From Chloroflexota bacterium (GTDB lineage: Bacteria; Chloroflexota; UBA11872): DNA of 64,000 nucleotides. The notes beneath the pieces were generated by a model. It did not search any database. It had not been told where the DNA came from and saw nothing but the letters and a program-made list of their open reading frames with translations. Shown here one piece after another: positions 3,563 through 63,026 of the stretch. The translations under genes and the position numbers were made by a program. Location: positions 123,554 to 187,553 of the forward strand of contig JAPOVQ010000006.1 of NCBI GenBank assembly GCA_026708035.1. The letters are read 5' to 3'. How positions within the stretch are numbered: position 1 is the stretch's first letter; the number at the start of each line of letters is the position of its first letter.

Positions 3563-4532
3563 CTCGACCTGCCTCCGCCACCGTGACCGTGCGCGCGAAC
3601 CATGGATCGCCGTCAGGGTCGGGCTCGACATTGACGGCCATGCTGGTGGTAACCGCTAGGACCGCGCCGTCGAATGGCGCGGTCACCTCTTGGACTGGCT
3701 CGCCGAAGTAATCCCAGATTTGACCAAGCGTTTCACCGGCGGCTACTTTCGCCCCCGGACTGGTTGCCGGCACCCATAGCCCCGGGGAGTCGACCACGTG
3801 GCTCCAGATCTCCGGACCGACGACACGCAGCGGCACCGCGCGGTCCGTCACGACTCCGTCGATCACATCCAGGGCATCCAGCACGCGCAGCAGGTCGTCC
3901 AATAGGACCTGGGCGTCGCCGACGACGTCGCTTACGCCGCCGCCGCCCGTAACGATGAGCGCCGCGCGGCCTCGAGTCGCCATGTGACCGGCGGCACCCA
4001 ATTCGATTGCCGTCGGGTCATTCGGATCCACGGCAACGCGCATCTCGACTCCGGAAGCCACGGCCAGGGCCAGGGACTCGAACTGCGAAGCCGCTGGCGG
4101 AACGGCGGCCCAGTGGGCGTGCAGCTCGGTCAGCTCGCCGCCGCGAACGTCGATGTGAACGTCGGCGTCCGCCAGGGCTTCGGTCACGGCCTGGGCGATA
4201 CGGTCGCTCGCCGACGGCTTCCCCGCTCTCTCGGCGGCGGCGAAAGCCCCGGCCACTGCGCGGCCATCCAGCGGGCAGAAACGGGCGGCCCGTCCATAGA
4301 ACCCCGTCACATCCACAACCGGCACGATGCGCACGCGTCCCCTGGTCAGAAGCCCAGGCAAGCGCTTGGCCAACATGCGGCACGCCGAGATGCCCGGATA
4401 CGCCGTGCCGGCAAGGCCGCCGACGATGTTGATCAACGGCCCCGGCGTCGCGGCGGAGATTTCGGTCAGCGGGATTTCGGCCGAGGGATGCCCAGGCACG
4501 ACAATCGCCCGAACTTCTCGCTCAGCCGTCAT
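3546..4532 (-). CDS. AstE/AspA family paralog, probably lacking canonical zinc ligands
   Basis: Collinear with the 1245-2276 product, but the HxxE position reads GLAGTAYPG and the second His region reads DVRGG. Coding-like GC3 bias. First gene of the three-gene minus-strand unit. Confidence 0.6.
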   Translation of the reverse strand: MTAEREVRAIVVPGHPSAEIPLTEISAATPGPLINIVGGLAGTAYPGISACRMLAKRLPGLLTRGRVRIVPVVDVTGFYGRAARFCPLDGRAVAGAFAAAERAGKPSASDRIAQAVTEALADADVHIDVRGGELTELHAHWAAVPPAASQFESLALAVASGVEMRVAVDPNDPTAIELGAAGHMATRGRAALIVTGGGGVSDVVGDAQVLLDDLLRVLDALDVIDGVVTDRAVPLRVVGPEIWSHVVDSPGLWVPATSPGAKVAAGETLGQIWDYFGEPVQEVTAPFDGAVLAVTTSMAVNVEPDPDGDPWFARTVTVAEAGRDDRDA

Positions 4533-4864
4533 GCGTCAACCACCTGGCGCTGGCCCTTGCGATCAGACGATTTTGAGCGGCACGCATCGCATGCGTTGTC
4601 CGGTCGGCAATGCCGGAGCATGAAGATCCCAACAGGATTGCAGCGCCGGAGTTTAGCATTCTGACAATATGGGTGATTGTGATCTACGGACCGGAGACCG
4701 ATAGAGTCGCCAATCAATTCCGGACTGCTTCCAATCACTTCACACGAATCTAAATTGTGCTTTATAAGTATATTCACCCCAACGTTTCTCTTGATATTCA
4801 AGCCGAATCTGACCACATGCTATCATTTACACCACCATTGCATTGATGCGTATCGGATCATTAC
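4533..4864. promoter_or_regulatory. AT-rich divergent intergenic region (putative bidirectional promoter region)
   Basis: Sharp local GC drop between divergently oriented genes (4532 minus, 4865 plus). Several TTGaca/TAtaaT-like hexamers are present, but none can be assigned confidently. Confidence 0.35.
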
Positions 4865-5635
4865 ATGGTCACCCCACGGCTTGCGGGCAAGATAGCCATC
4901 GTCACCGGCGCGGCGTCCGGCATCGGACGCGCCAGCGCCATTCGCTTCGCCCGCGAAGGCGCCAACGTAGTGATCGCCGATATCAACACAGCCGGAGGCG
5001 AGCGGACCGTCGAATTGATCGATCAAGAAGGCGGCGAAGCGTCGTTCATCCATTGCGACGTTTCCGACACCGAAAACGTGCAGGCACTCGTCGAGGAGAC
5101 TCTCGCCACCCACGGCCGCATCGACATCCTCTTCGCCAACGCCGCCTACCTGGACGAGCTCTTCGGCGTGGCCGAGACCTCGGAGGAGGTCTGGGACCGG
5201 CACATCGGCGTCACCCTCACCGGCGTCTACCTGTGCTGCAAGTACGTCATTCCACACATGATTCAAGCCGGCGGCGGATCGATCCTCGCAACCTCATCGG
5301 TCGGCGGCTCGGTCGCCTTCGATCGTCAGTCGGCCTACTGCACCGCCAAGGCGGGCGTTGAGATGCTGATGAAGACCATCGCGCGGGACTACGGCCGCGC
5401 CGGCATCCGGGCCAACGCCCTCGCGCCCGGCGCCGTATATACGCCGGTGATGGAGGACGTAAAGCGCCGCAATCCCGACGGCTGGGACCAGGTGCTGCGC
5501 GACATGAGCCTGATGGAGCGCCTCTGGGCCGAGCCCGAGGACATCGCGGCCGCCGCCGCCTACCTCGTCAGCGACGAAGCGGCCTTCGTCACGGGCACCG
5601 TGCTCACCGTCGACGGCGGCTGGACGGCCCACTAG
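4865..5635 (+). CDS. SDR family NAD(P)-dependent oxidoreductase
   Basis: [10 protein letters not shown] Rossmann motif, NAA, and catalytic YCTAK (YxxxK) in a 256-aa translation. Confidence 0.9.
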
Positions 5636-6742: not shown

Positions 6743-8022
6743 TCAGAGCGGGCGGACGTGCCCATCGCCGCGCACGACCCATTTGTACGTGGTCAGCTCG
6801 CGCAGGCCCATCGGCCCCCGGGCGTGCAGCTTCTGGGTGCTGATGCCCACCTCGGCGCCGAGTCCGAACTCGCCGCCGTCCGTGAACTGGGTGGACGCGT
6901 TCACGTACACCGCCGCCGCGTCGACCTCGTCGAGGAAGCGCTCGGCATTGGTGAGCGAGCGGGTCACGATCGCCTCCGAGTGGCCCGATCCGTGCGTCTG
7001 GATGTGGTCCAGCGCCTCATCGATGCCGTCCACGACGACCACCGACATGCGCAGGTCTTGCCATTCGGTGTCCAGGTCATCGCCCGTTAGGTTCACAACC
7101 CGGGCAAGGCCGTCCAGGAGCGGCAGCGCCTCGGCGTCAGCGTGCATCTCCACGTCCTTGTCCGCCAGGGCCTGCCCCACGGTCGGCACGAACTCCGACG
7201 CCACCGATCGATCGACCAGCAGGGTGTCGAGGGCGTTGCAGATCGACGGCCGCCGGGTCTTGGCGTTCACCACGATGCGCTCGGCCGCCGCCAGATCGGC
7301 GCCTGCGTCCACATAGGTGTGGCACACGCCCCAGCCGGTTTCGATCACCGGCACCGAAGCCGTCTTGGTCACGAATTCGATCAGCCCTTGGCCGCCGCGA
7401 GGCACCACGACATCCACGCCATGGCGCGCCTGCAACAGCTCGCGCACCAGGTCCCGGTCGGGATTGGTGATGGCCTGAATCGCGTCGGCCGGCACGCCGG
7501 CCGCCTGCAGCGCCTCGCGCGCCAGCCGAACCAGCGCGCCGGTGCTGTGCTGGGACTCGCTGCCGCCGCGCAGAATCACCGCGTTGCCGGACTTGAGGCC
7601 CAAGGCCGAGATATCGATGGCCACGTTGGGGCGCGACTCGAAGACTGCCCCGATCACCCCCAGCGGCACGCGACGTCGGGCCACCTCCAGGCCGTTGGGC
7701 AACCGACGCGCGTCGACCGACTCGCCCACCGGGTCGGGGAGACCGATCACCGTGCCGAGCGCGTCCGCGATCCCGTCGATCCGCGCCGGTGTAAGCGTGA
7801 GACGGTCGATATAGGCGTCCTCACGACCCGCGGCACGCGCTTGCGCCACGTCCCGCGCGTTTGCCGCCAGCACATCGGTCTGCTCGGCTCGGAGCGCCGC
7901 GGCCATCGCCTCGAGCGCCTGGTTCTTGGCGTCGGCGTCCAGCTTGGCGACTTCACGCGCGGCGCGGCGCGCCGCCGCGACCAGATCGGGAACGCTCGGC
8001 CGAACGGCGGTTGGCGCGTCAA
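6743..8022 (-). CDS. proA: gamma-glutamyl phosphate reductase
   Basis: Strong ProA-like translation throughout. First ATG is at 7906, but the ProA-like reading frame (…EEVVINAAIDAP…) stays open upstream to a TAA. The true start is probably a non-ATG codon between 7906 and 8022. Confidence 0.8.
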
Positions 8023-8049
8023 TTGCGGCGTTGATGACGACCTCCTCGG

Positions 8050-9162
8050 TCAGGCGTGGGCACTGTCGAGCAAGACCAGGTTATTGCGATGCACGGCTTC
8101 CGCCCCGTGGTCGTAATCGAGGATCGACGCAATCAAGTGTGACGGCCGACCCAAGATCCGCACCAAGTCGTGCGAGGCATAGTTTACGAGTCCGCGGGCG
8201 AAGACTCGTTCATCGGGCCCGGCCACCGCCACCACGTCACCCCGGATGAAGTCGCCATCCACGGCGCAGATGCCGGCGGGAAGCAGGCTCCGCCCAGCAT
8301 CGGTGAGCGCTTCCTTGGCGCCTCCGTCGACGCGCAGGGTGCCGCGCTCGGTGGCCGCGGAGCTGAGCCAGCGGGCTCGGCTGGTGCGGGTCACTGGTCG
8401 CGGCGCAAATCGCGTGCCGATGCGCTCGCCGGCAGCGATGCGCGAAAGGACGTCGGGCTCGTTGCCGCTGGCGACGACGACCTCGATACCGTCGAAGCTA
8501 GCGCTGCGAGCCGCCTCGACCTTCGATCGGACGCCTCCCGAGCCGCCGGCGCCGGCCGCTCCCGCGGCGCTGGCCAACAACTCGTCCGTTATCGCATGTC
8601 CGTCCCGAATCAGCTCCGCGTCCGGATGGCGACGAGGATCCCCGGTATAGAGACCGTCGGTTGCCGTGAGCAGGATCAGCAGATCGGCGTCAACCAGCTG
8701 CGCAATCAGGGCCGACAGCGGGTCGTTGTCGCCAAACCGCAGCTCCTCCGTCGCAACCACGTCGTTCTCGTTGGCGATCGGCAACACGCCCTGATCCAGC
8801 AAGCCGGTGAGGGCGTTGCGCGCGTTGAGAAACCCGTCGCGCGTGGTCAGGTCGGCGCGGGACATCAACGTCTGCGCCACGGTGATGTCGTGCGCCGCGA
8901 ACACCGTGCCGTAGCGGGCGATGAGCGGCGCCTGTCCCACGGCGGCCAGGACCTGGCGCGTGGTGAGCTGATTGCCTTGCAGGTGGAGCCTGGCGCGTCC
9001 TGCCGCCACCGCCCCTGAGGACACGAGCACCACCTCGGCGCCACCCCGCATGAGCGAGGAAATCTGCGCCGCGATCTGCTCGATGTAGGGCTCGTTGAGG
9101 CCGGCAGGCGTCGTGAGCAGCTGCGTGCCGCACTTGACGACGATGCGCTTTCGACCAGACAT
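8050..9162 (-). CDS. proB: glutamate 5-kinase with C-terminal PUA domain
   Basis: MSGRKRIVVKCGT... amino-acid kinase fold followed by a PUA-like C-terminus. ATG at 9162. ORF-track start at 9336 is an upstream in-frame extension. Confidence 0.85.
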   Translation of the reverse strand: MSGRKRIVVKCGTQLLTTPAGLNEPYIEQIAAQISSLMRGGAEVVLVSSGAVAAGRARLHLQGNQLTTRQVLAAVGQAPLIARYGTVFAAHDITVAQTLMSRADLTTRDGFLNARNALTGLLDQGVLPIANENDVVATEELRFGDNDPLSALIAQLVDADLLILLTATDGLYTGDPRRHPDAELIRDGHAITDELLASAAGAAGAGGSGGVRSKVEAARSASFDGIEVVVASGNEPDVLSRIAAGERIGTRFAPRPVTRTSRARWLSSAATERGTLRVDGGAKEALTDAGRSLLPAGICAVDGDFIRGDVVAVAGPDERVFARGLVNYASHDLVRILGRPSHLIASILDYDHGAEAVHRNNLVLLDSAHA

Positions 9163-9285
9163 GGTGACCGGGGCTCCAGATCCGCCGTGCCGCTCGGGTG
9201 CGTGATTGTAGGGACTCGCCGATATAATGGCGCTCCCCCGCGCCGCGCGCCTTGTGGCGTGCCCAGCCCGAAGGAACTCACGGCC

Positions 9286-11349
9286 ATGGATCGGGACAAC
9301 AGCGACACGATCCGGAACGTGGTGTTCGTGGCGCACAGCGGCGCCGGCAAGACCTCGCTCACCGAGGCCATGGCCTTCGTGACCGGGCAGACTTCGCGTC
9401 TTGGTCGGGTGGAAGACGGCAACACCATCTCCGACTTCGACCCGGACGAGGTGGAACGGGGCATGTCGATCAACCTTTCGGTCGTGCCCTGCCCCTGGCG
9501 CGGCGCCACGGTCAACGTCATCGATACGCCGGGATATCCGGACTTCATCGGCGACGTGGTCTCGGGTCTGCGGGCGGCGGATGCGGCGATCGTGGTGATC
9601 GACGCCACCGCTGGCATTCAGGTCGGCACCGAAATCGTGTGGCGGCTCGTCGACCGACGGGACCGCCCGCGACTCGTGGTCGTGAATCGCATGGACCGCG
9701 AAAACGTGAACTGGGAAAACGTCGTCCAGGAGCTGCGCGACAAGTTTGGCGCGGCCATCGCCCCCATCCAGATCCCGCTGGGCGACGCGCCGGCGTTCGA
9801 CGGCGTGGTCGATCTACTTGACGGCACGGCCCGCGCGTTCACCGACAGCGGCAGCGAGCCGATCCCGGTGCCTGACGAGTTGGCCGAGACGGTCGAGATC
9901 GCGCGCGAGCAACTCACCGACGCGGTGGCCGCCACCGACGACGACCTGCTTGAAAAGTATCTGGAGGGCGAAGAGCTCGAGCGCAGCGATCTCGAGCGGG
10001 CGCTGCGGGAAGGCGTGCGCGCCGGAGAGGTCTACCCCGTCGTGTTTACCGCCGCCACGGCGACCCACGGCGCGCGCGAATTGCTCGACGCCATCACCGC
10101 CGTGTTGCCGGCGCCGTCGGACCTGCCCGTCGCGCCCACCGCAAACGGCGCGACCATTGACTTCGCAAGCGACGGGCCGGTCGTCGCCCAGGTGTTCAAG
10201 ACCCTCGCCGACCCGTTCGTGGGCAAGGTGTCCCTGCTGCGCCTCTACACCGGGACGATCTCGGGGGACGTCGAGTTGCGCAACCAGACCAGCGGCCGGA
10301 ACGAGCGGCTCTCGGGCTTCCAATACCCCGTCGGCAAGGGCGGCGAGCAAGCGCGAGTCGTCGTGGCCGGCGACATCGCGTTCGTCACCAAGCTGGAGAA
10401 CGTCGCCACCGGTGACACGCTGGTGTCGGACGGCTCCGCGGACAAGATGGGCGCGCTGGACATGCCCACGCCGCTGTTCGAGGCCGCCATCACGCCGGCG
10501 ACCCAGGCCGACCTGGACAAGATGGGCCAGGTGCTCGCGCGAATCGCGGAGGAGGACCCGTCGCTGCGCGTGGGGCGCGACGAGCAGACCGGAGAGACCA
10601 TCCTGGCCGGTCTGGGCGAGTCGCACGTGCATATCAGCCTCGAGCGCATCCGGCGCAAGTTCGGCGTGAACCTGTTGTCCGACGTGCCGCGGGTGCCCTA
10701 TCTCGAGACCATTCGCAAGACTGTGAACGCGCATGGGCGGCACAAGCGGCAATCCGGCGGTCGCGGGCAGTTCGGGGACGTGCACATCGAGTTCTCCCCG
10801 CGGGAGCGAGGCGCGGGCTTCGAGTTCGCGGACCGCATCAAGGGCGGCGCGATTCCCAGGCAATACCTGCCCGCCGTGGAGAAGGGGCTCGTCGAGTGCT
10901 TTGCCAGTGGCTCGCTGGCGGGATACCCCGTGGTGGACATCAAGGCGGCGGCGTTCGACGGGCAATACCACGACGTCGACTCGTCCGACGAGTCCTTCCG
11001 CAACGCCGCCCGGCTGGCGGTGGAGGACGGCTACCACCAAGCCAGCCCCGTGATCCTGGAGCCGATTGTCAAGCTCGCCATCGAAATCCCGGACCTGAAC
11101 ACGGGTGACGTGATCGGCGACATCAGCGCGCGGCGCGGGCACGTGCTGGGCATGAATCCCGCCGATTACGACGGCGCCACGATCGTCGAAGTCGAGGTAC
11201 CAAAGGCGGAGGTGCAGCGCTACGCCACCGACCTGCGCTCGATCACGCAGGGACGGGGACAGTTCACCAGCGCCTTCGTTCGCTACCAGGAAGTGCCGCC
11301 GCACGTGCAGGATCGCCTCGTCGCCGAGGCGGCCGCCGAGAACGGCTAG
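9286..11349 (+). CDS. elongation factor G-like translational GTPase (EF-G paralog)
   Basis: G1 AHSGAGKTS, G3 DTPGYPDF, G4 NRMD, EF-G domains II-V. ATG 9286 preceded by GAAGGA. Confidence 0.85.
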   Translation: MDRDNSDTIRNVVFVAHSGAGKTSLTEAMAFVTGQTSRLGRVEDGNTISDFDPDEVERGMSINLSVVPCPWRGATVNVIDTPGYPDFIGDVVSGLRAADAAIVVIDATAGIQVGTEIVWRLVDRRDRPRLVVVNRMDRENVNWENVVQELRDKFGAAIAPIQIPLGDAPAFDGVVDLLDGTARAFTDSGSEPIPVPDELAETVEIAREQLTDAVAATDDDLLEKYLEGEELERSDLERALREGVRAGEVYPVVFTAATATHGARELLDAITAVLPAPSDLPVAPTANGATIDFASDGPVVAQVFKTLADPFVGKVSLLRLYTGTISGDVELRNQTSGRNERLSGFQYPVGKGGEQARVVVAGDIAFVTKLENVATGDTLVSDGSADKMGALDMPTPLFEAAITPATQADLDKMGQVLARIAEEDPSLRVGRDEQTGETILAGLGESHVHISLERIRRKFGVNLLSDVPRVPYLETIRKTVNAHGRHKRQSGGRGQFGDVHIEFSPRERGAGFEFADRIKGGAIPRQYLPAVEKGLVECFASGSLAGYPVVDIKAAAFDGQYHDVDSSDESFRNAARLAVEDGYHQASPVILEPIVKLAIEIPDLNTGDVIGDISARRGHVLGMNPADYDGATIVEVEVPKAEVQRYATDLRSITQGRGQFTSAFVRYQEVPPHVQDRLVAEAAAENG

Positions 11350-54911: not shown

Positions 54912-55151
54912 GGGCGGGTCAGAGACCCGCCCCTACGTCAGGTGAGATGCCAGGGTTCATTCCCCCTCACCCCAACCCTCTCCCACGGTGGGGAGAGGGG
55001 GCATGGGCGCCGCTCATCCCAAGCCCCCCGCGAGTGCCACATTGACGGACGCGGGTAGCGGCGGGTTTCAAACCCGCCCGTTCGGTGTAGGGGCAGCCCT
55101 CGTGGCTGCCCTGGTCATCGGCGGCGCGGGCGCCCGCGAGGGACGCCCCTA
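54912..55151. repeat. composite repeat cluster: families C, B (reverse), C, A
   Basis: C at 54912-54936; B at 54962-55000; C at 55058-55086; A at 55087-55151 (GTAGGGGCAGCCCTCGTGGCTGCCC...GGGCGCCCGCGAGGGACGCCCCTAG). Confidence 0.7.
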
Positions 55152-59054: not shown

Positions 59055-59332
59055 GCTGGTATTGGGTAGCTATACAGGAGTACGCCCCGCGTCACGCCGA
59101 GCATCGCCCGCCCACCCTAACGCACCATTCCCCACCACACAAATACCGAACACTCCGCTGCCGCAAGCCCTTGCGAGCGGACGTGGCGTTGGTCTATTTG
59201 TCGCGAACTCTGCCCTTGCGACGGGTTGACCGGCCTTTTGCGACCGTGGGACATTGCTGGTTTCAAGCTGATCTGTTCGGAATACTCCAGGCGTTTGCCA
59301 TCCCTTGATGAAGTGGCTAGAGGAGGCTCAAC

Positions 59333-60217
59333 ATGTTGGTTAAAACACTTCCATTGGGAATGGTACGTGTCTTTGCACTGAAGCTGACATTGATCTTGCT
59401 AATCACCGTTTCTTTGCTGTTCACGGATTCGCGTCATGTGCGGGCATGTACATGCGAAGAACCGATACCACTACCTGAGATCCTCGACTACTTCCCCATG
59501 GTTTTCGCAGGAAGGGTCATTGATGAGCGTCTACTGTATAGCCCTTACGCAGGAATGTCTCCTTTTAGTTTCGAATTACCGGATGCAGCCGAAACTGTTT
59601 ACACCTTCCTCGTTAGCAAGATCTGGAAAGGCCCACTCTATGAGACGGTTTACATCCAAGAGTGGAAAGCTCAGTCATCATGTTCCGATCGATCGTTCGA
59701 GCTGGGCGAGGAGTATCTCATCTACGCCGAGCCGCCGAATATGACGGTGTCCTTTTGCAGTGCATCAAAACCCCTGGCATCTGCGCAGGAAGATCTTGGA
59801 TACTTAGGAGCCGGCCAAGCGCCCGAAGCAGGAAGGGTCGCTCCCAGGCCATTCGGCCTAGAATACTGGCATTCCAAGGAGGAATTGATCGCAACTGTCA
59901 GAAGACTTCTTGCCCGCTGGGGTCCAGAGCCCTTTCCAACTTTCCCTGCAACGAGGTCGACGGCCATGTCAACGCCTACGCCCGTGCCGGGAACCCCCAC
60001 CCCGCAACCGACACCTACGCCCGCATCGACGCCAGAAACGCCCGCGGTAGCAGCCACTCCAGAGCCACCGCCCATCCCCAGTCCACATCCTGCGGGAATC
60101 AGCCAGGACGCGAGCGATCCGGTATGGCTCATTCCCACCGTCGCGGGCGTATCGGGCGTCATCGTGGGCGTTCTCGCGACCACACTCCTTGTGCGACAGC
60201 GACGCGGCGGCACCTAG
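59333..60217 (+). CDS. secreted TIMP/NTR-like domain protein with PT-rich linker and C-terminal TM anchor
   Basis: AGGAGG 8 nt before ATG. Signal peptide ending VRA|CTC. Mature N-terminal CTCEEP...VFAGRVI, plus Cys at mature positions 1, 3, 79 and 104 in TIMP-like spacing (SSCS, FCS). 5' half clearly lower GC than surroundings. Confidence 0.7.
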   Translation: MLVKTLPLGMVRVFALKLTLILLITVSLLFTDSRHVRACTCEEPIPLPEILDYFPMVFAGRVIDERLLYSPYAGMSPFSFELPDAAETVYTFLVSKIWKGPLYETVYIQEWKAQSSCSDRSFELGEEYLIYAEPPNMTVSFCSASKPLASAQEDLGYLGAGQAPEAGRVAPRPFGLEYWHSKEELIATVRRLLARWGPEPFPTFPATRSTAMSTPTPVPGTPTPQPTPTPASTPETPAVAATPEPPPIPSPHPAGISQDASDPVWLIPTVAGVSGVIVGVLATTLLVRQRRGGT

Positions 60218-60286: not shown

Positions 60287-60363
60287 GGGCAGGTTTGAAA
60301 CCTGCCCCTACCGGAGACGCGCGCCACGTCGGGCGTAGGGGCGGGTTTGAAACCCGCCCGTTC
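60287..60363. repeat. two family-C hairpin repeats (GGGC[A/G]GGTTTGAAACC[T/C]GCCC)
   Basis: GCGGGCAGGTTTGAAACCTGCCCCTAC and GTAGGGGCGGGTTTGAAACCCGCCCGTTCC. Downstream of the TIMP-like gene. Confidence 0.65.
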
Positions 60364-60398: not shown

Positions 60399-61553
60399 TC
60401 AGGCCGCCCAGCTTGCGACGAAATCGTCCACGGTCACCGGCTGCCGCGGCTCGGCGTGGAGGCGTTGCGCCAGCCAGTCGCAGCGGCGCCACAGCTCGTT
60501 AGTCTCGGCGTCGCTGAACCACTCGCCGAAGTCCGCTCCCCAGCCCAGCGTGAGCGGATGGAGAGACTTGGCCTCGCGCTGCAAGTCCTCCGGCAGCTCG
60601 TCGAAGTCCGGCTGCCTGAGCAGGTAAATGTGCCGCGCGGCCTCGGCCACGCATGCCGTAAGGGTCAGCTTGGACGCGGGGCCGGCGCCGGGGTGCAAAC
60701 GCTCGAGCGCCGTGCGAAAGGCCGCCGCGTCGCCGTCCAGGACGCCCTTCAGCGCCCGCGCCGTGAGGTCCCGCTGCTCCGCGGCGAGGCGATTCCAGCT
60801 CTGGAACGCGGCGGCGGACGAGGGCGAGAGGTGGCGCGTGAAGCCCGGATCACGCGGCATGGCGTGCACCGAAATGCCGCCGTGCACGGTGCGCCGCAGC
60901 TTCGTGCTGTAGTTGCTGCCCCAGTGCAACATGCTGTGGTAGTAGATCAAGCCGTCGCCGGCCTTGAGCTTCACGGGCATGCCGCCCGGCAGCGGCGACC
61001 GCGGATCATCCCTGAGCCGCCGGTCCTCCTCGGGCGTGTTCAGTCGGCGGTGGCTGCCCGGAACCACCCAGAACACGTCGTCGTCGTAGAGCGGCAGGTT
61101 CCACTGCAGGTAGCGCGGGCCGGTTTCCGCCAGCTCCTCTTGCAGCAGCCACAACGGCGCCACCCCGTTGTTTCCAATGTCGCGGTGCCACTTGGCGGGG
61201 CCGTGGTCGACGCGTGGGTTGCACATCATCATCATGTGCATGGGCACCGCCTCGGTTCCGCTGAGCAGCTCGCGGCTGGTGCCCATGACCGGCTCGCTGA
61301 GCCATAGCTCGACCGCCGGCGCGGTTTCCTCGTCCACCAGCGCGTGAAAGTCGGGCACGCGCGGCTGCATGTGTTTTTCCCACATGCCGCCGGGCGGATC
61401 GTCGGGTCCAGCCTCGCGGCGCCAGACCTCGCGCTGTCGTTCCAATAGACCCTCGCAGGCCTCGCGTACCGCGTCGATCCGGTCGGCCGGGATGACGTTG
61501 CGCACGAAGAGATAGCCGTCGCGACGGAGCAGGGACTTGTTCAGGCTGGGCAT
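60399..61553 (-). CDS. phytanoyl-CoA dioxygenase (PhyH) family Fe(II)/2-oxoglutarate oxygenase
   Basis: HxD (WHRDIG), distal His (HWGSNYS), Arg (RRTVHG). 384 aa. Confidence 0.75.
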   Translation of the reverse strand: MPSLNKSLLRRDGYLFVRNVIPADRIDAVREACEGLLERQREVWRREAGPDDPPGGMWEKHMQPRVPDFHALVDEETAPAVELWLSEPVMGTSRELLSGTEAVPMHMMMMCNPRVDHGPAKWHRDIGNNGVAPLWLLQEELAETGPRYLQWNLPLYDDDVFWVVPGSHRRLNTPEEDRRLRDDPRSPLPGGMPVKLKAGDGLIYYHSMLHWGSNYSTKLRRTVHGGISVHAMPRDPGFTRHLSPSSAAAFQSWNRLAAEQRDLTARALKGVLDGDAAAFRTALERLHPGAGPASKLTLTACVAEAARHIYLLRQPDFDELPEDLQREAKSLHPLTLGWGADFGEWFSDAETNELWRRCDWLAQRLHAEPRQPVTVDDFVASWAA

Positions 61554-61631
61554 GGGGTCTCCGATGTTGGGCGACGCGCGACGCCTCGGTTCAGACGAGG
61601 CGTTTCACGAAGTGTGCTTGAGCGCTGAGTT

Positions 61632-61850
61632 TCCCACGCTGCCCACAGCGCGGGCCACCGGACCGAGCCCGTTCGGTGTAGGGGCAGCCCTAGTGGCTGC
61701 CCGGATCGAATTGCACGGGCGCCCACCAGGGGCGCCCCTACGCGGACCTGGCCGTCGCCGGGTCTGGATTCCCGCCCCGTTCGGTGTAGGGGCAGCCCTA
61801 GTGGCTGCCCGGATCGAACCGGACGGGCGCCCACCAGGGGCGCCCCTACG
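61632..61850. repeat. repeat cluster between PhyH paralogs: family D, then two tandem family-A elements separated by a family-E-like piece
   Basis: D at 61632-61660; A at 61678-61742 and 61786-61850, each GTAGGGGCAGCCCTAGTGGCTGCCC-n-GGGCGCCCACCAGGGGCGCCCCTAC. Confidence 0.75.
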
Positions 61851-61871
61851 CGGGCAACGGGGTCGCTCGGC

Positions 61872-63026
61872 CTACGTGCCCCAGCTCGCGGCGAACTGGT
61901 CCAGCGTCACCCGCTGCCGGGGCTCGGCCTGGAGACGCTGCGCCAACCACTCGAAGCGACGCCACAGCTCGTCGGCCTCCGCGTCGCTGAACCGGTCGGC
62001 GAAGGCCGGACCCCAGCCCAACGTGAGCGGGTGGAGGTGCGTGGCCTGTCGCTGCATCGCCTCCGGCAGGTCGTCGAAGCCCGGCTGCTTGAGCAGGTGA
62101 ATGTGACGCGCGGCTTCGGCCAGGCATGCCGTGAGGGTCAGCTTGGACGCGGGACCGGCACCGGGATGCAAGCGCTCGAGCGCCGCTTCAAAACCCGGCG
62201 CGTCGCCGGCCAAGACTCCGCGCAGCGCCTGGTCGGTGAGGTCCCGCTGCTCCGCCGCGCGGCGATTCCACGTCTGGAACGCAGCGGCGGACGAGGGCGA
62301 GAGATGGCGCGTGAAGCCGGTGTCCCGCGGCATGGCGTGCACCGCCATGCCGCCGTGCACCGTGCGCCGGAGCTTCGGGCTGTAGTTGCTGCCCCAGTGC
62401 AGCATGCTGTGGAGATAGATCAAGCCGTCGCCGGCCTTGAGCTCCACGGGCATGCCGCCCGGCAGCGGCGACCGCGGATCGTCCGCCAGCTGCCGATCCT
62501 CCTCCGGGGTATTCAGCCGGCGGTGGCTGCCCGGAACCACCCAGAGCACGTCGTCGTCGTAGAGCGGCAGGTTCCACTGCAAGTAGCGGGGGCCGGTTTC
62601 CGCCAGCTCCTCTTGCAGGAGCCACAGCGGCGCCACCTCGAGCGGCCCGATGTCGCGGTGCCACTTGGCGGGACCGTGGTCGGTGCGCGGGTTGCACATC
62701 ATCATCATGCGCATGGGCACCGCCTCAGGCCCGCTGAGCAGCTCGCGGCTGATACTCATGACCGGCTCGCTGAGCCAGATCTCGACCGCCAGCGCGGTTT
62801 CCGCGTCCACCAGTGCGTGAAACTCGGGCACGCGCGGCTGAGGGCGCATGTCCCACACGCCGCCGGGGAGATCGTCGGGCCCAGCCTCCTGGCGCCAGAT
62901 CTCGCGCTGCCGGTCCAGCACGCCCTCGCAGGCTTCGCGCACTGCGTCGAGCCGCTCGGCCGGGATGACGTCGCGCACGATGACGTAGCCGTCGCGACGG
63001 AGCTGGGATTGGTTCAAGCTGGGCAT
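61872..63026 (-). CDS. PhyH family oxygenase, tandem paralog of 60399-61553
   Basis: Same length, collinear, highly similar translation (MPSLNQSQLRRDGYVIVRDVIPAERLDAVREACEG...). Confidence 0.75.
   Translation of the reverse strand: MPSLNQSQLRRDGYVIVRDVIPAERLDAVREACEGVLDRQREIWRQEAGPDDLPGGVWDMRPQPRVPEFHALVDAETALAVEIWLSEPVMSISRELLSGPEAVPMRMMMMCNPRTDHGPAKWHRDIGPLEVAPLWLLQEELAETGPRYLQWNLPLYDDDVLWVVPGSHRRLNTPEEDRQLADDPRSPLPGGMPVELKAGDGLIYLHSMLHWGSNYSPKLRRTVHGGMAVHAMPRDTGFTRHLSPSSAAAFQTWNRRAAEQRDLTDQALRGVLAGDAPGFEAALERLHPGAGPASKLTLTACLAEAARHIHLLKQPGFDDLPEAMQRQATHLHPLTLGWGPAFADRFSDAEADELWRRFEWLAQRLQAEPRQRVTLDQFAASWGT

Follow-up and report, generated by a model that had tools for sequence, protein, structure and literature searches.

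A membrane-anchored TIMP-like protein of a Chloroflexota bacterium belongs to a large, uncharacterised prokaryotic family

Introduction

Can a bacterium carry a genuine relative of the tissue inhibitors of metalloproteinases (TIMPs), and if so, what would such a protein do there? The question is raised by one gene in a 64,000-nucleotide stretch of DNA from a Chloroflexota bacterium (assembly GCA_026708035.1, contig JAPOVQ010000006.1, positions 123,554 to 187,553 of the forward strand). We refer to this whole stretch as the window and number it from its first letter. A preliminary description of the window, made from the sequence alone, had proposed that the gene encodes an exported, membrane-anchored protein whose TIMP/NTR-type ectodomain starts with Cys1-x-Cys3. 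Profile searches, fold prediction and the conservation of the cleavage site all support this core claim.

TIMPs are central regulators of extracellular-matrix turnover in animals and are generally treated as an animal invention. Their origin has been placed in the eumetazoan ancestor in a study that does not mention bacterial homologues (PMC10755359), and a further study of TIMP evolution makes no mention of them either (PMC4860685). A TIMP contacts its protease by way of Cys1, whose alpha-amino and carbonyl groups are ligands of the catalytic zinc, and of residue 2, whose side chain fits into the S1' pocket; when the N-terminus is extended, acetylated or carbamylated, inhibition of matrix metalloproteinases is severely reduced (PMC3003256).

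Judged from its sequence, the product studied here is best described as a prokaryotic, single-domain, membrane-tethered TIMP homologue with two predicted disulfides, and, within a very large and uncharacterised family, as a divergent member. We do not file it as a canonical TIMP because the third disulfide of the N-domain and the C-terminal domain are absent and because its inhibitory activity is a prediction. The gene is one of thousands, and the unstudied family to which it belongs bears on the origin of animal TIMPs.

Results

The mature domain is homologous to the N-terminal domain of TIMPs

The mature domains of 13 sequences from the clade of the window protein were aligned (alignment A2), and the resulting profile was run against all sequences of the Protein Data Bank (PDB). 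Invariant in this alignment are Cys1, Cys3, Pro8, Phe20, Gly22, Val56, Trp60, Gly62, Cys79, Cys104, Ala113, Gln114 and Leu117. The profile matched the N-terminal domain of TIMP-2 (N-TIMP-2) at E=1e-8 (38 bits), with profile positions 1-106 lying on TIMP residues 1-104, followed by TIMP-3 (E=4.6e-5) and TIMP-1 (E=0.04), each aligned from residue 1. Nothing but TIMPs was matched in the PDB at E<1, and no non-TIMP NTR chain (C345C, netrin or PCOLCE) appeared at E<=10. The alignment with TIMP-2 begins at Cys1-Ser2-Cys3 and places Cys79 and Cys104 opposite Cys72 and Cys101, the disulfide partners of Cys1 and Cys3 in TIMP-2.

Single sequences pointed in the same direction. Seven of the 13 clade members matched the Pfam TIMP family (PF00965; best E=1.5e-5), and one matched the Pfam NTR family (PF01759; E=0.08). 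Among distant bacterial relatives, P0031 (39.9 bits), P0057 (35.6 bits) and P0104 (31.2 bits) exceed the PF00965 gathering score of 23.1 bits. The TIMP relationship is therefore latent in the databases. The Pfam TIMP matches of the relatives span profile positions 2 to about 113 of 183. When the window protein was searched alone, it found nothing in NCBIfam and nothing meaningful among PDB sequences; weak PDB matches to a corramycin phosphotransferase and to Fab heavy chains were located in the linker or stalk and were rejected as low-complexity noise.

An AlphaFold2 (AF2) model of the mature domain (predicted local distance difference test score, pLDDT, 83; predicted template modelling score 0.78) predicts a five-stranded TIMP/NTR OB barrel flanked by helices; the barrel agrees with what the preliminary description had anticipated. 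The nine best Foldseek matches of this model in the PDB were all TIMP-2, -3 or -1 (E about 2e-4, template modelling score 0.57), and the predicted fold is structurally similar to NTR modules too. The four cysteines described earlier at mature positions 1, 3, 79 and 104 were confirmed, and all of them are invariant in the 13-sequence alignment. In the wider family, 180 of 198 domain instances carry all four, the exceptions being internal repeats, fragments and the clade member P0011. This protein has lost both Cys1 and Cys79 and kept Cys3 and Cys104, a joint loss that fits a 1-79 and 3-104 disulfide pairing. The most variable segment of the domain is mature 32-46 (2.3 bits vs 0.8-1.8 elsewhere), which is the low-confidence loop of the model and corresponds to the AB loop of TIMPs. 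Given these results, we regard homology to the inhibitory N-domain of TIMPs as nearly certain.

Conservation of the cleavage site predicts a free N-terminal cysteine

The position of Cys1 at the cleavage site is meaningful because this residue's amino group and carbonyl group coordinate the catalytic zinc in TIMPs. We judged the site by its conservation over 172 family members, of which 169 were scored for C-x-C and 166 for the preceding residues. C-x-C stands at profile position 1 in 166 of the 169 (median residue 31). Ala occupies position -1 in 164 of the 166 and Gly in the other 2, and position -3 is A, V, S, T or G in 163, while position -2 is usually bulky or polar (Tyr, His or Phe, also Gln and Arg). 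A hydrophobic stretch lies ahead of Cys1 in 161 members. This pattern is that expected of a signal peptidase I (A-x-A) site, and cleavage there would make Cys the first mature residue in essentially the whole family.

Mature residue 2 is Ser in 136 and Thr in 14 family members, the same two residues that human TIMPs carry at this position; in the window protein it is Thr. The product starts with MLVKTLPLGMVRVFALKLTLILLITVSLLFTDSRHVRA, followed by CTCEEP. An AxA-type cleavage exposing an N-terminal Cys-Thr-Cys, as proposed earlier, is thus supported both by the context V-R-A/C-T-C after a hydrophobic helix and by the family statistics at -3 and -1.

A tethered ectodomain on a variable stalk

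The segments of the protein and the features of the surrounding DNA are collected in Table 1. In the full-length AF2 model, a helix at residues 9-31 is followed by an ordered region up to about residue 197, a disordered stretch at about 200-265 and a second helix at 266-290; pLDDT is about 86-90 in the part of the model that includes the ectodomain extension (residues 161-190). The OB-fold domain carries the conserved motifs VFAG, WKGP, SC, EYLIYA and AQEDL. Several details of the preliminary description recur in these data: the motifs VSKIWKGP, SSCSDRSFELGEEYLIYAEP and TVSFCS are found in the protein, and the Pro/Thr stalk and C-terminal transmembrane helix are present in the sequence, with a disordered segment and a helix as their counterparts in the model. 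The single gene with a strong AGGAGG ribosome-binding site is likewise borne out by the list of open reading frames (ORFs) and the sequence: the ORF starts with ATG and encodes 294 amino acids, and the Shine-Dalgarno AGGAGG at 59321-59326 is spaced 6 nt from the start codon.

Table 1 Features of the TIMP-like gene, its product and the flanking DNA (window coordinates)
Feature	Position	Strand	Basis
Upstream intergenic region of reduced GC (0.59), containing AGGAGG	59055..59332	+	Sequence, GC
Gene for the membrane-anchored TIMP-like protein, GC 0.56, GC at third codon positions (GC3) 0.57	59333..60217	+	ORF list, 16 homologues, composition
Signal peptide, residues 1-38, ending V-R-A; predicted signal peptidase I cut Ala38/Cys39	59333..59446	+	Predicted helix 9-31, family conservation
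TIMP/NTR-like OB-fold domain, residues 39-170 (mature 1-132); Cys1, Cys3, Cys79, Cys104	59447..59842	+	
Ordered ectodomain extension, residues 171-197, short helices 174-178 and 182-195	59843..59923	+	AF2 model
Pro/Thr-rich disordered stalk, residues about 198-264	59924..60124	+	Sequence; pLDDT <50, no secondary structure
C-terminal transmembrane helix WLIPTVAGVSGVIVGVLATTLLV, residues 265-287, basic tail RQRRGGT, stop codon	60125..60217	+	Model helix 266-290
Two palindromes, GGGCAGGTTTGAAACCTGCCC and GGGCGGGTTTGAAACCCGCCC, in the spacer where the TIMP-like and PhyH genes converge	60287-60307, 60339-60359	.	Sequence

The anchor and its basic, presumably cytoplasmic tail predict a type I topology in which the TIMP-like domain would be extracellular. 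We consider an exported type I topology with a free Cys1 highly probable. A C-terminal transmembrane-like segment occurs in 102 of 166 family members, and stalk length is highly variable among homologues. Mean identity between the window protein and its clade members is highest in the transmembrane anchor (58%), intermediate in the domain (45%) and lowest in the extension (27%). The strong conservation of the anchor could reflect a sorting or interaction signal, or it could provide conserved ends that enable recombination of the variable middle; NCBIfam recognised no known sorting signal in the anchor and tail segment. The consensus of anchor and tail in alignment A1 (residues 259-294) reads P-x-W-L-I-P-x-V-A-G-V-x-G-V-L-V-G-x-L-A-T-T-L-x-L-R-R-R-G-G-G-T.

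The gene is one member of a widespread prokaryotic family

A homologue search with the window protein returned 16 sequences, one of which is 100% identical (NCBI, metagenome-assembled genome (MAG) of a Chloroflexi bacterium, OXG33_02515, hypothetical protein); on these grounds the gene is real and not a chance ORF. To cover the wider family, an exhaustive profile search was run on 1.84 billion cluster representatives (50% identity clusters). It matched 14,302 representatives at E<=1e-3 and 4,581 at E<=1e-10, most of them 150-250 amino acids long and with a domain start at residues 20-50. TIMP-2, which scores highest among animal proteins (38 bits), would give E about 1e-4 in that library, so the 4,581 strong matches represent the prokaryotic family itself. 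Phyla named for this strong family, which comprises at least 4,581 clusters, are Chloroflexota, Acidobacteriota, Bacillota, Bacteroidota and Planctomycetota, together with some archaea. The earlier expectation that such a domain would be unusual in a bacterium is therefore not borne out, given that the roughly 14,300 cluster representatives come from many phyla of bacteria and some of archaea.

A scan of species representatives of the Genome Taxonomy Database with a four-sequence alignment gave 37 loci. These belong to Dehalococcoidia, Blastocatellia, Pyrinomonadaceae, Bacteroidota including Flavobacterium, Planctomycetota, a deltaproteobacterium, Eisenbacteria, a Nanoarchaeote and a Nitrosopumilus, as well as to cultured Bacillaceae (Bacillus, Neobacillus, Lysinibacillus, Paenibacillus, Cytobacillus and Solibacillus). 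The archaeal members come from MAGs (L025, Nanoarchaeota; L043, Nitrosopumilus), and the domain apparently extends beyond bacteria.

The names that NCBI and JGI give to family members were seen to be "hypothetical protein", NCBIfam holds no model for the prokaryotic TIMP-like family, and no account of prokaryotic TIMP homologues was found in the searchable literature. One member, P0175 of Neobacillus piezotolerans, is labelled "Cobalamin biosynthesis prot…" in UniRef and hypothetical by NCBI; the label is probably a propagated annotation error.

Some relatives combine the domain with others. P0127 (654 amino acids, JGI name "serpin B") fuses a TIMP-like domain to a full serpin (PF00079, E=4.6e-109), and its cluster comprises seven members of about 654 amino acids from at least six contigs. 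The order along P0127 is TIMP-like domain, transmembrane helix, basic loop, a second hydrophobic segment ending in the lipobox-like LLLVAC, and serpin. Such a topology would put both inhibitor domains outside the cell. The junction also gave a weak NCBIfam match to a "lipo-invert putative C-terminal anchoring domain" (E=7e-5), below the cutoff. Other relatives contain two or three tandem TIMP-like domains (P0048 and P0158, each of about 1200 amino acids, and P0021, P0023, P0024 and P0067), and in their internal repeats C-x-C has become C-x-x-C or has been lost. This loss would be consistent with a need for a free Cys1 in the first domain only. P0140 carries a C-terminal LysM domain.

An old locus of atypical composition that diverges rapidly

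The preliminary description had placed the gene between a YprA-like helicase gene and PhyH genes, in an AT-rich dip at about 59100-59800 that was read as a horizontally acquired low-GC island. The neighbours and the dip proved correct. Upstream lies a DEAD/Helicase_C/MZB (YprA-like) helicase gene on the minus strand, and downstream lie the PhyH genes. In 300-bp windows, GC is 0.47-0.51 over 59200-59800, compared with 0.66-0.75 in the flanks; in 600-bp windows across the 64 kb (mean 0.690, standard deviation 0.031), the minimum of 0.505 falls at 59201-59800, about 6 standard deviations below the mean (z about -6). GC3 is 0.57 in the TIMP-like gene and 0.92 in the helicase gene upstream; the two PhyH genes downstream have 0.89 and 0.90. 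It is the sole credible low-GC3 gene within the window, since the other low-GC3 ORFs turned out to be Arg-rich out-of-frame artefacts and were rejected as genes.

If a low-GC donor had recently contributed the gene as a foreign cassette that now lies between helicase and PhyH genes, this would account for the GC3 of 0.57 next to about 0.90, for the lowest-GC stretch of the whole 64 kb and for the low GC of the upstream intergenic DNA. The comparison with related genomes speaks against it. The order RNase_H_2, helicase, TIMP-like gene and PhyH genes recurs in related contigs (L005 and L006/L007), and the slot between helicase and PhyH genes is occupied in all three related genomes examined. Amino-acid identity to the window copy is 93-95% for the helicase, 79-80% for the first PhyH protein and 36-42% for the TIMP-like protein in the same slot. 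These relatives show the same bias, with a GC3 of 0.59-0.64 in the TIMP-like genes and 0.87-0.92 in the neighbours. In the more distant L009, the TIMP-like genes also lie below their neighbours (0.70-0.76 vs 0.81-0.87), which points to a property of the family in GC-rich hosts or to repeated allele exchange. Furthermore, the only tRNA is 30 kb off, and no integrase or transposase domain was found in the called neighbouring genes. We thus rejected a recent genomic island, which we hold to be quite improbable; of the earlier island claim, the atypical composition stands and the recent insertion does not.

Instead, the gene occupies an old, long-established locus. Divergence here is several times faster than in the surrounding genes, and different genomes carry different paralogous types. 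Pairwise comparison distinguished at least four sequence types in the clade. L005 has two TIMP-like genes at the locus (7334-8311 and 10001-11119) of different sequence types, and L009 has a tandem pair (9203-9991 and 10001-10738) whose products are 58% identical to each other. A probable orthologous pair, L005 orf325 and L006 P0008, is 72% identical, next to helicases that are 93% identical. The low GC3 may be kept by repeated allele exchange across a community of differing GC, or by escape from the force that raises GC3 to 0.9 in this genome. In L005 the TIMP-like and PhyH genes alternate, which suggests joint duplication of both families.

Other features of the surrounding DNA

A consensus scan found no sigma-70-like promoter upstream of the TIMP-like gene, and the scan for promoters and terminators was uninformative. 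The two palindromes downstream of the gene (Table 1) are GC-rich and of the form GGGC(A/G)GGTTT(G/C)AAACC(T/C)GCCC; a pattern search located a related copy at 55061-55077, about 5 kb upstream, where none would be expected by chance. Their sequence suggests that they may act as a bidirectional terminator or represent repeats resembling repetitive extragenic palindromes (REP). The C-terminal extension of the homologue P0002 (…RAGFNPAPT…) resembles read-through into such a palindrome.

Further downstream, at 60399-63026 and beyond (L001 11067-15172), lie three tandem paralogues of the PhyH (phytanoyl-CoA dioxygenase) family of 384, 384 and 371 amino acids. The intergenic region at 61537-61834 contains an internal direct repeat, visible in the ORF translation as a duplicated …PFGVGAALVAARIE…GRPPGAPLRG…. 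The second-lowest GC of the window (about 0.55-0.565) was found at about 4450-5250, covering intergenic DNA and the 5' part of a short-chain dehydrogenase-like ORF (4865-5635).

Discussion

A candidate surface-tethered metalloprotease inhibitor

For the function of the protein we lean, if slightly, towards a surface-tethered zinc metalloprotease inhibitor acting on enzymes of other organisms. Metalloprotease inhibition, taken by itself, we rate at even chances. In the mechanism that we propose, signal peptidase I would cut after Ala38 and turn Cys39 into mature residue 1. Disulfides Cys1-Cys79 and Cys3-Cys104, the probable equivalents of Cys1-Cys72 and Cys3-Cys101 in TIMP-2, would then stabilise the N-terminus, while the extension, the Pro/Thr stalk and the transmembrane helix with its basic tail would hold the domain above the cell surface. 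By analogy with TIMPs, the active-site cleft of a zinc metalloprotease would receive the rigid N-terminal ridge. Cys1 would chelate the catalytic zinc through its free alpha-amino group and its carbonyl group, and Thr2 would occupy the S1' pocket, with specificity tuned by the variable AB loop. The targets would be exogenous metalloproteases of competitors, predators or a host, and the protein would serve as a protective surface shield rather than as the regulator of a cognate enzyme.

Several lines of sequence evidence argue for this role. The sequence homology is specific to TIMPs and not shared with other NTR modules, Cys1 stands at the predicted signal peptidase site almost universally with Ser or Thr at position 2, and both disulfide positions that would fix the ridge are kept. 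The serpin fusion of a relative also points to protease inhibition. Signs of an arms race can be seen in the 36-42% identity of the protein next to 93-95% for the helicase, in the tandem copies, in the sequence types, of which there are at least four, and in the variability of the AB loop. Because the gene is an orphan, its product would be displayed on the surface and its sequence diversifies fast, an inhibitor of exogenous proteases in the manner of ecotin is the form of inhibition that we favour. The contig labels of L001 and L007 (ROBB21-1_SAMN13943205_METAG and NGUY21-1_SAMN17524321_METAG) hint at marine sponge or reef metagenomes, the former at the sponge and seawater samples of Robbins et al. 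2021, but the accessions were found neither in the searchable literature nor in that study, and we give this possible host-associated lifestyle no weight. No host-specific explanation is necessary, since members of the wider family are found in taxa of soil and freshwater.

A number of observations weigh against an inhibitory role. On its own, the window protein matched no Pfam family at E<=10, and neither did its mature domain, so that the TIMP/NTR profile match foreseen in the preliminary description holds for the family profile (N-TIMP-2, E=1e-8) and for 7 of 13 relatives (PF00965) and fails for the protein alone. The window domain has no cysteine at the positions aligned with the third N-TIMP disulfide (Cys13-Cys126 in TIMP-2). 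The C-terminal domain of TIMPs, with three further disulfides, is absent as well; the N-domain is followed by the extension, stalk and transmembrane helix, which contain no cysteine. A dedicated bacterial inhibitor usually has its gene next to that of its protease, as in the serralysin/Inh and Listeria Mtz/Tim pairs. Within 3.5 kb of the 37 family loci, no ORF with the metzincin motif (HExxHxxGxxH) was found, and three ORFs contained HExxH. The 113 immediate neighbours of the family genes share no recurrent Pfam family (the most frequent, RDD, occurred four times), and no plausible HExxH gene was detected in the 64-kb window. For many NTR modules the function is not inhibition, and for every member of the prokaryotic family the inhibitory role would follow from homology.

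Part of this evidence is equally what one would expect of a non-inhibitory NTR/OB-fold binding module, that is, an adhesin or a ligand-binder for polysaccharide, matrix or protein, in which C-x-C would do no more than staple the fold. Agrin NtA and the NTR modules of PCOLCE, netrins and complement would be comparable cases. A linked protease gene would not be needed, a LysM domain, which binds cell walls, is joined to one relative, and display on a stalk and anchor suits an adhesin equally well. The profiles, however, select TIMPs: 7 of 13 clade members match TIMP whereas 1 of 13 matches NTR at E=0.08, and no non-TIMP NTR chain is found at E<=10. Nor does a structural disulfide need such exact placing of the cysteine, which would be the first mature residue in 166 of 169 members with Ser or Thr next to it, and the serpin fusion leads back to protease inhibition. 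We hold a binding module to be unlikely, though it is the most serious competitor of the inhibitor that we favour.

The same cysteines allow two other interpretations. An extracytoplasmic metal-binding (Cu/Zn) or thiol-redox domain could use the N-terminal Cys-x-Cys with its free amine, and the invariance of C-x-C would agree with this, as would a copper ATPase, a CsoR-type repressor and a YHS gene 6-9 kb downstream in L009. All four cysteines, however, align with disulfide-bonded cysteines of TIMP-2, and P0011 lost Cys1 and Cys79 jointly, as a structural pair would be lost. The metal genes of L009 are not adjacent and the association was seen nowhere else; the 25 commonest Pfam families of the 113 neighbours (each in at least two) include neither metal-homeostasis nor thioredoxin families. 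We rejected the metal-homeostasis link as non-recurrent among neighbours, and such a function appears very improbable. A lipoprotein, finally, would have Cys39 lipidated after cleavage by signal peptidase II and its amino group blocked, like Tim of Listeria. A Cys does follow directly after the signal peptide, and in the searched literature the one bacterial TIMP-like protein that has been studied by experiment, Tim, is a lipoprotein (PMC8235301). The V-R-A/C context, with Arg at -2, and the bulky or polar residues of the family at this position disagree with a lipobox, 6 of 166 members fit [LVI][ASTVI][GAS]C, and the protein already has a C-terminal transmembrane anchor. Based on the residue statistics at -3, -2 and -1, we rejected lipidation, which is hardly credible here.

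Implications

A large prokaryotic family with the same Cys-x-Cys, the same ridge disulfide positions and the same fold would reopen the question of TIMP origin. If the inhibitory role is true, the family would constitute a major class of bacterial metalloprotease inhibitors beside the few that are known (I38 serralysin inhibitors and Streptomyces SMPI). A far-reaching version holds that prokaryotes possess a vast family of genuine TIMPs which chelate metalloprotease zinc via a free N-terminal Cys and share a direct origin with animal N-TIMP by transfer in either direction, with the Chloroflexi clade as a diversifying shield against exogenous metzincins; as a whole, we would call this conjecture from sequence rather improbable. 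The presence of members in cultured Bacillaceae and Flavobacterium makes the hypothesis directly testable. For this organism, a fast-diverging surface inhibitor would indicate protease-mediated conflict as a selective force on the envelope, and small two-disulfide bacterial N-TIMP scaffolds could serve inhibitor engineering.

Comparison with known systems

The closest known proteins are the animal TIMPs (PF00965, MEROPS I35), in particular N-TIMP-2 and N-TIMP-3. Both groups have a mature Cys-Ser/Thr-Cys straight after the signal peptide, cysteines that match the Cys1-Cys72 and Cys3-Cys101 pairs of TIMP-2, a variable AB-loop region and a helix after the last Cys, and the motifs xFKGP and EYLIxG of TIMPs have their counterparts in WKGP and EYLIYA here. 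In contrast to TIMPs, the window protein is prokaryotic, lacks an equivalent of Cys13-Cys126 and the C-terminal domain, and would be tethered to the membrane by a stalk and transmembrane helix, whereas TIMPs are secreted; its inhibition of proteases is predicted.

Single-domain NTR/netrin-like proteins and other NTR modules (hookworm AceES-2 (3nsw), the NTR module of PCOLCE, agrin NtA and complement C345C) differ by the lack of detectable profile similarity. They serve as binding or enhancer domains and are not known to chelate zinc; agrin NtA, for example, binds laminin. The modules of PCOLCE and complement are embedded in larger proteins, so that their first Cys is not a free N-terminus. For PCOLCE, one report describes the NTR module as a binding or enhancer domain (PMC2871463).

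Among bacterial proteins, Tim of Listeria monocytogenes (LMRG_00714) is likewise membrane-associated and resembles TIMPs in its fold. Its partner is the metzincin Mtz, and the authors of its study report no earlier record of bacterial TIMP-like proteins (PMC8235301). Its likeness to TIMPs lies in the predicted structure and not in the sequence, and it is anchored N-terminally through the lipobox LTAC; the gene directly follows that of its metzincin, which cleaves Tim near residue 50 (PMC8235301). The window protein, in contrast, is homologous to TIMPs in sequence, has a predicted signal peptidase I site and is anchored C-terminally, and no metzincin gene adjoins its own. The Mtz/Tim arrangement of Listeria is thus not seen at this locus, where there is neither a lipobox nor an adjoining metzincin and the upstream neighbour is the helicase on the opposite strand.

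The serralysin inhibitors (APRin/Inh, MEROPS I38) of Pseudomonas, Serratia and Erwinia are also bacterial protein inhibitors of metzincins. The N-terminus of an I38 inhibitor inserts towards the catalytic zinc from an unrelated fold, an eight-stranded beta-barrel. The alkaline protease inhibitor contacts its metzincin in the fashion of a TIMP (PMC8235301). I38 inhibitors reside in the periplasm, and their genes adjoin that of the cognate protease; the prokaryotic TIMP-like family, in contrast, is unlinked to protease genes.

In this last respect, ecotin (MEROPS I11) offers a functional analogy, though no homology. Ecotin is an orphan inhibitor of the envelope that is thought to protect against exogenous proteases. 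It differs in targeting serine proteases, in its fold and in being soluble in the periplasm. The analogy lies in the unlinked protease gene and the location at the envelope, which suggest that the TIMP-like protein of this Chloroflexota bacterium may follow the same logic.

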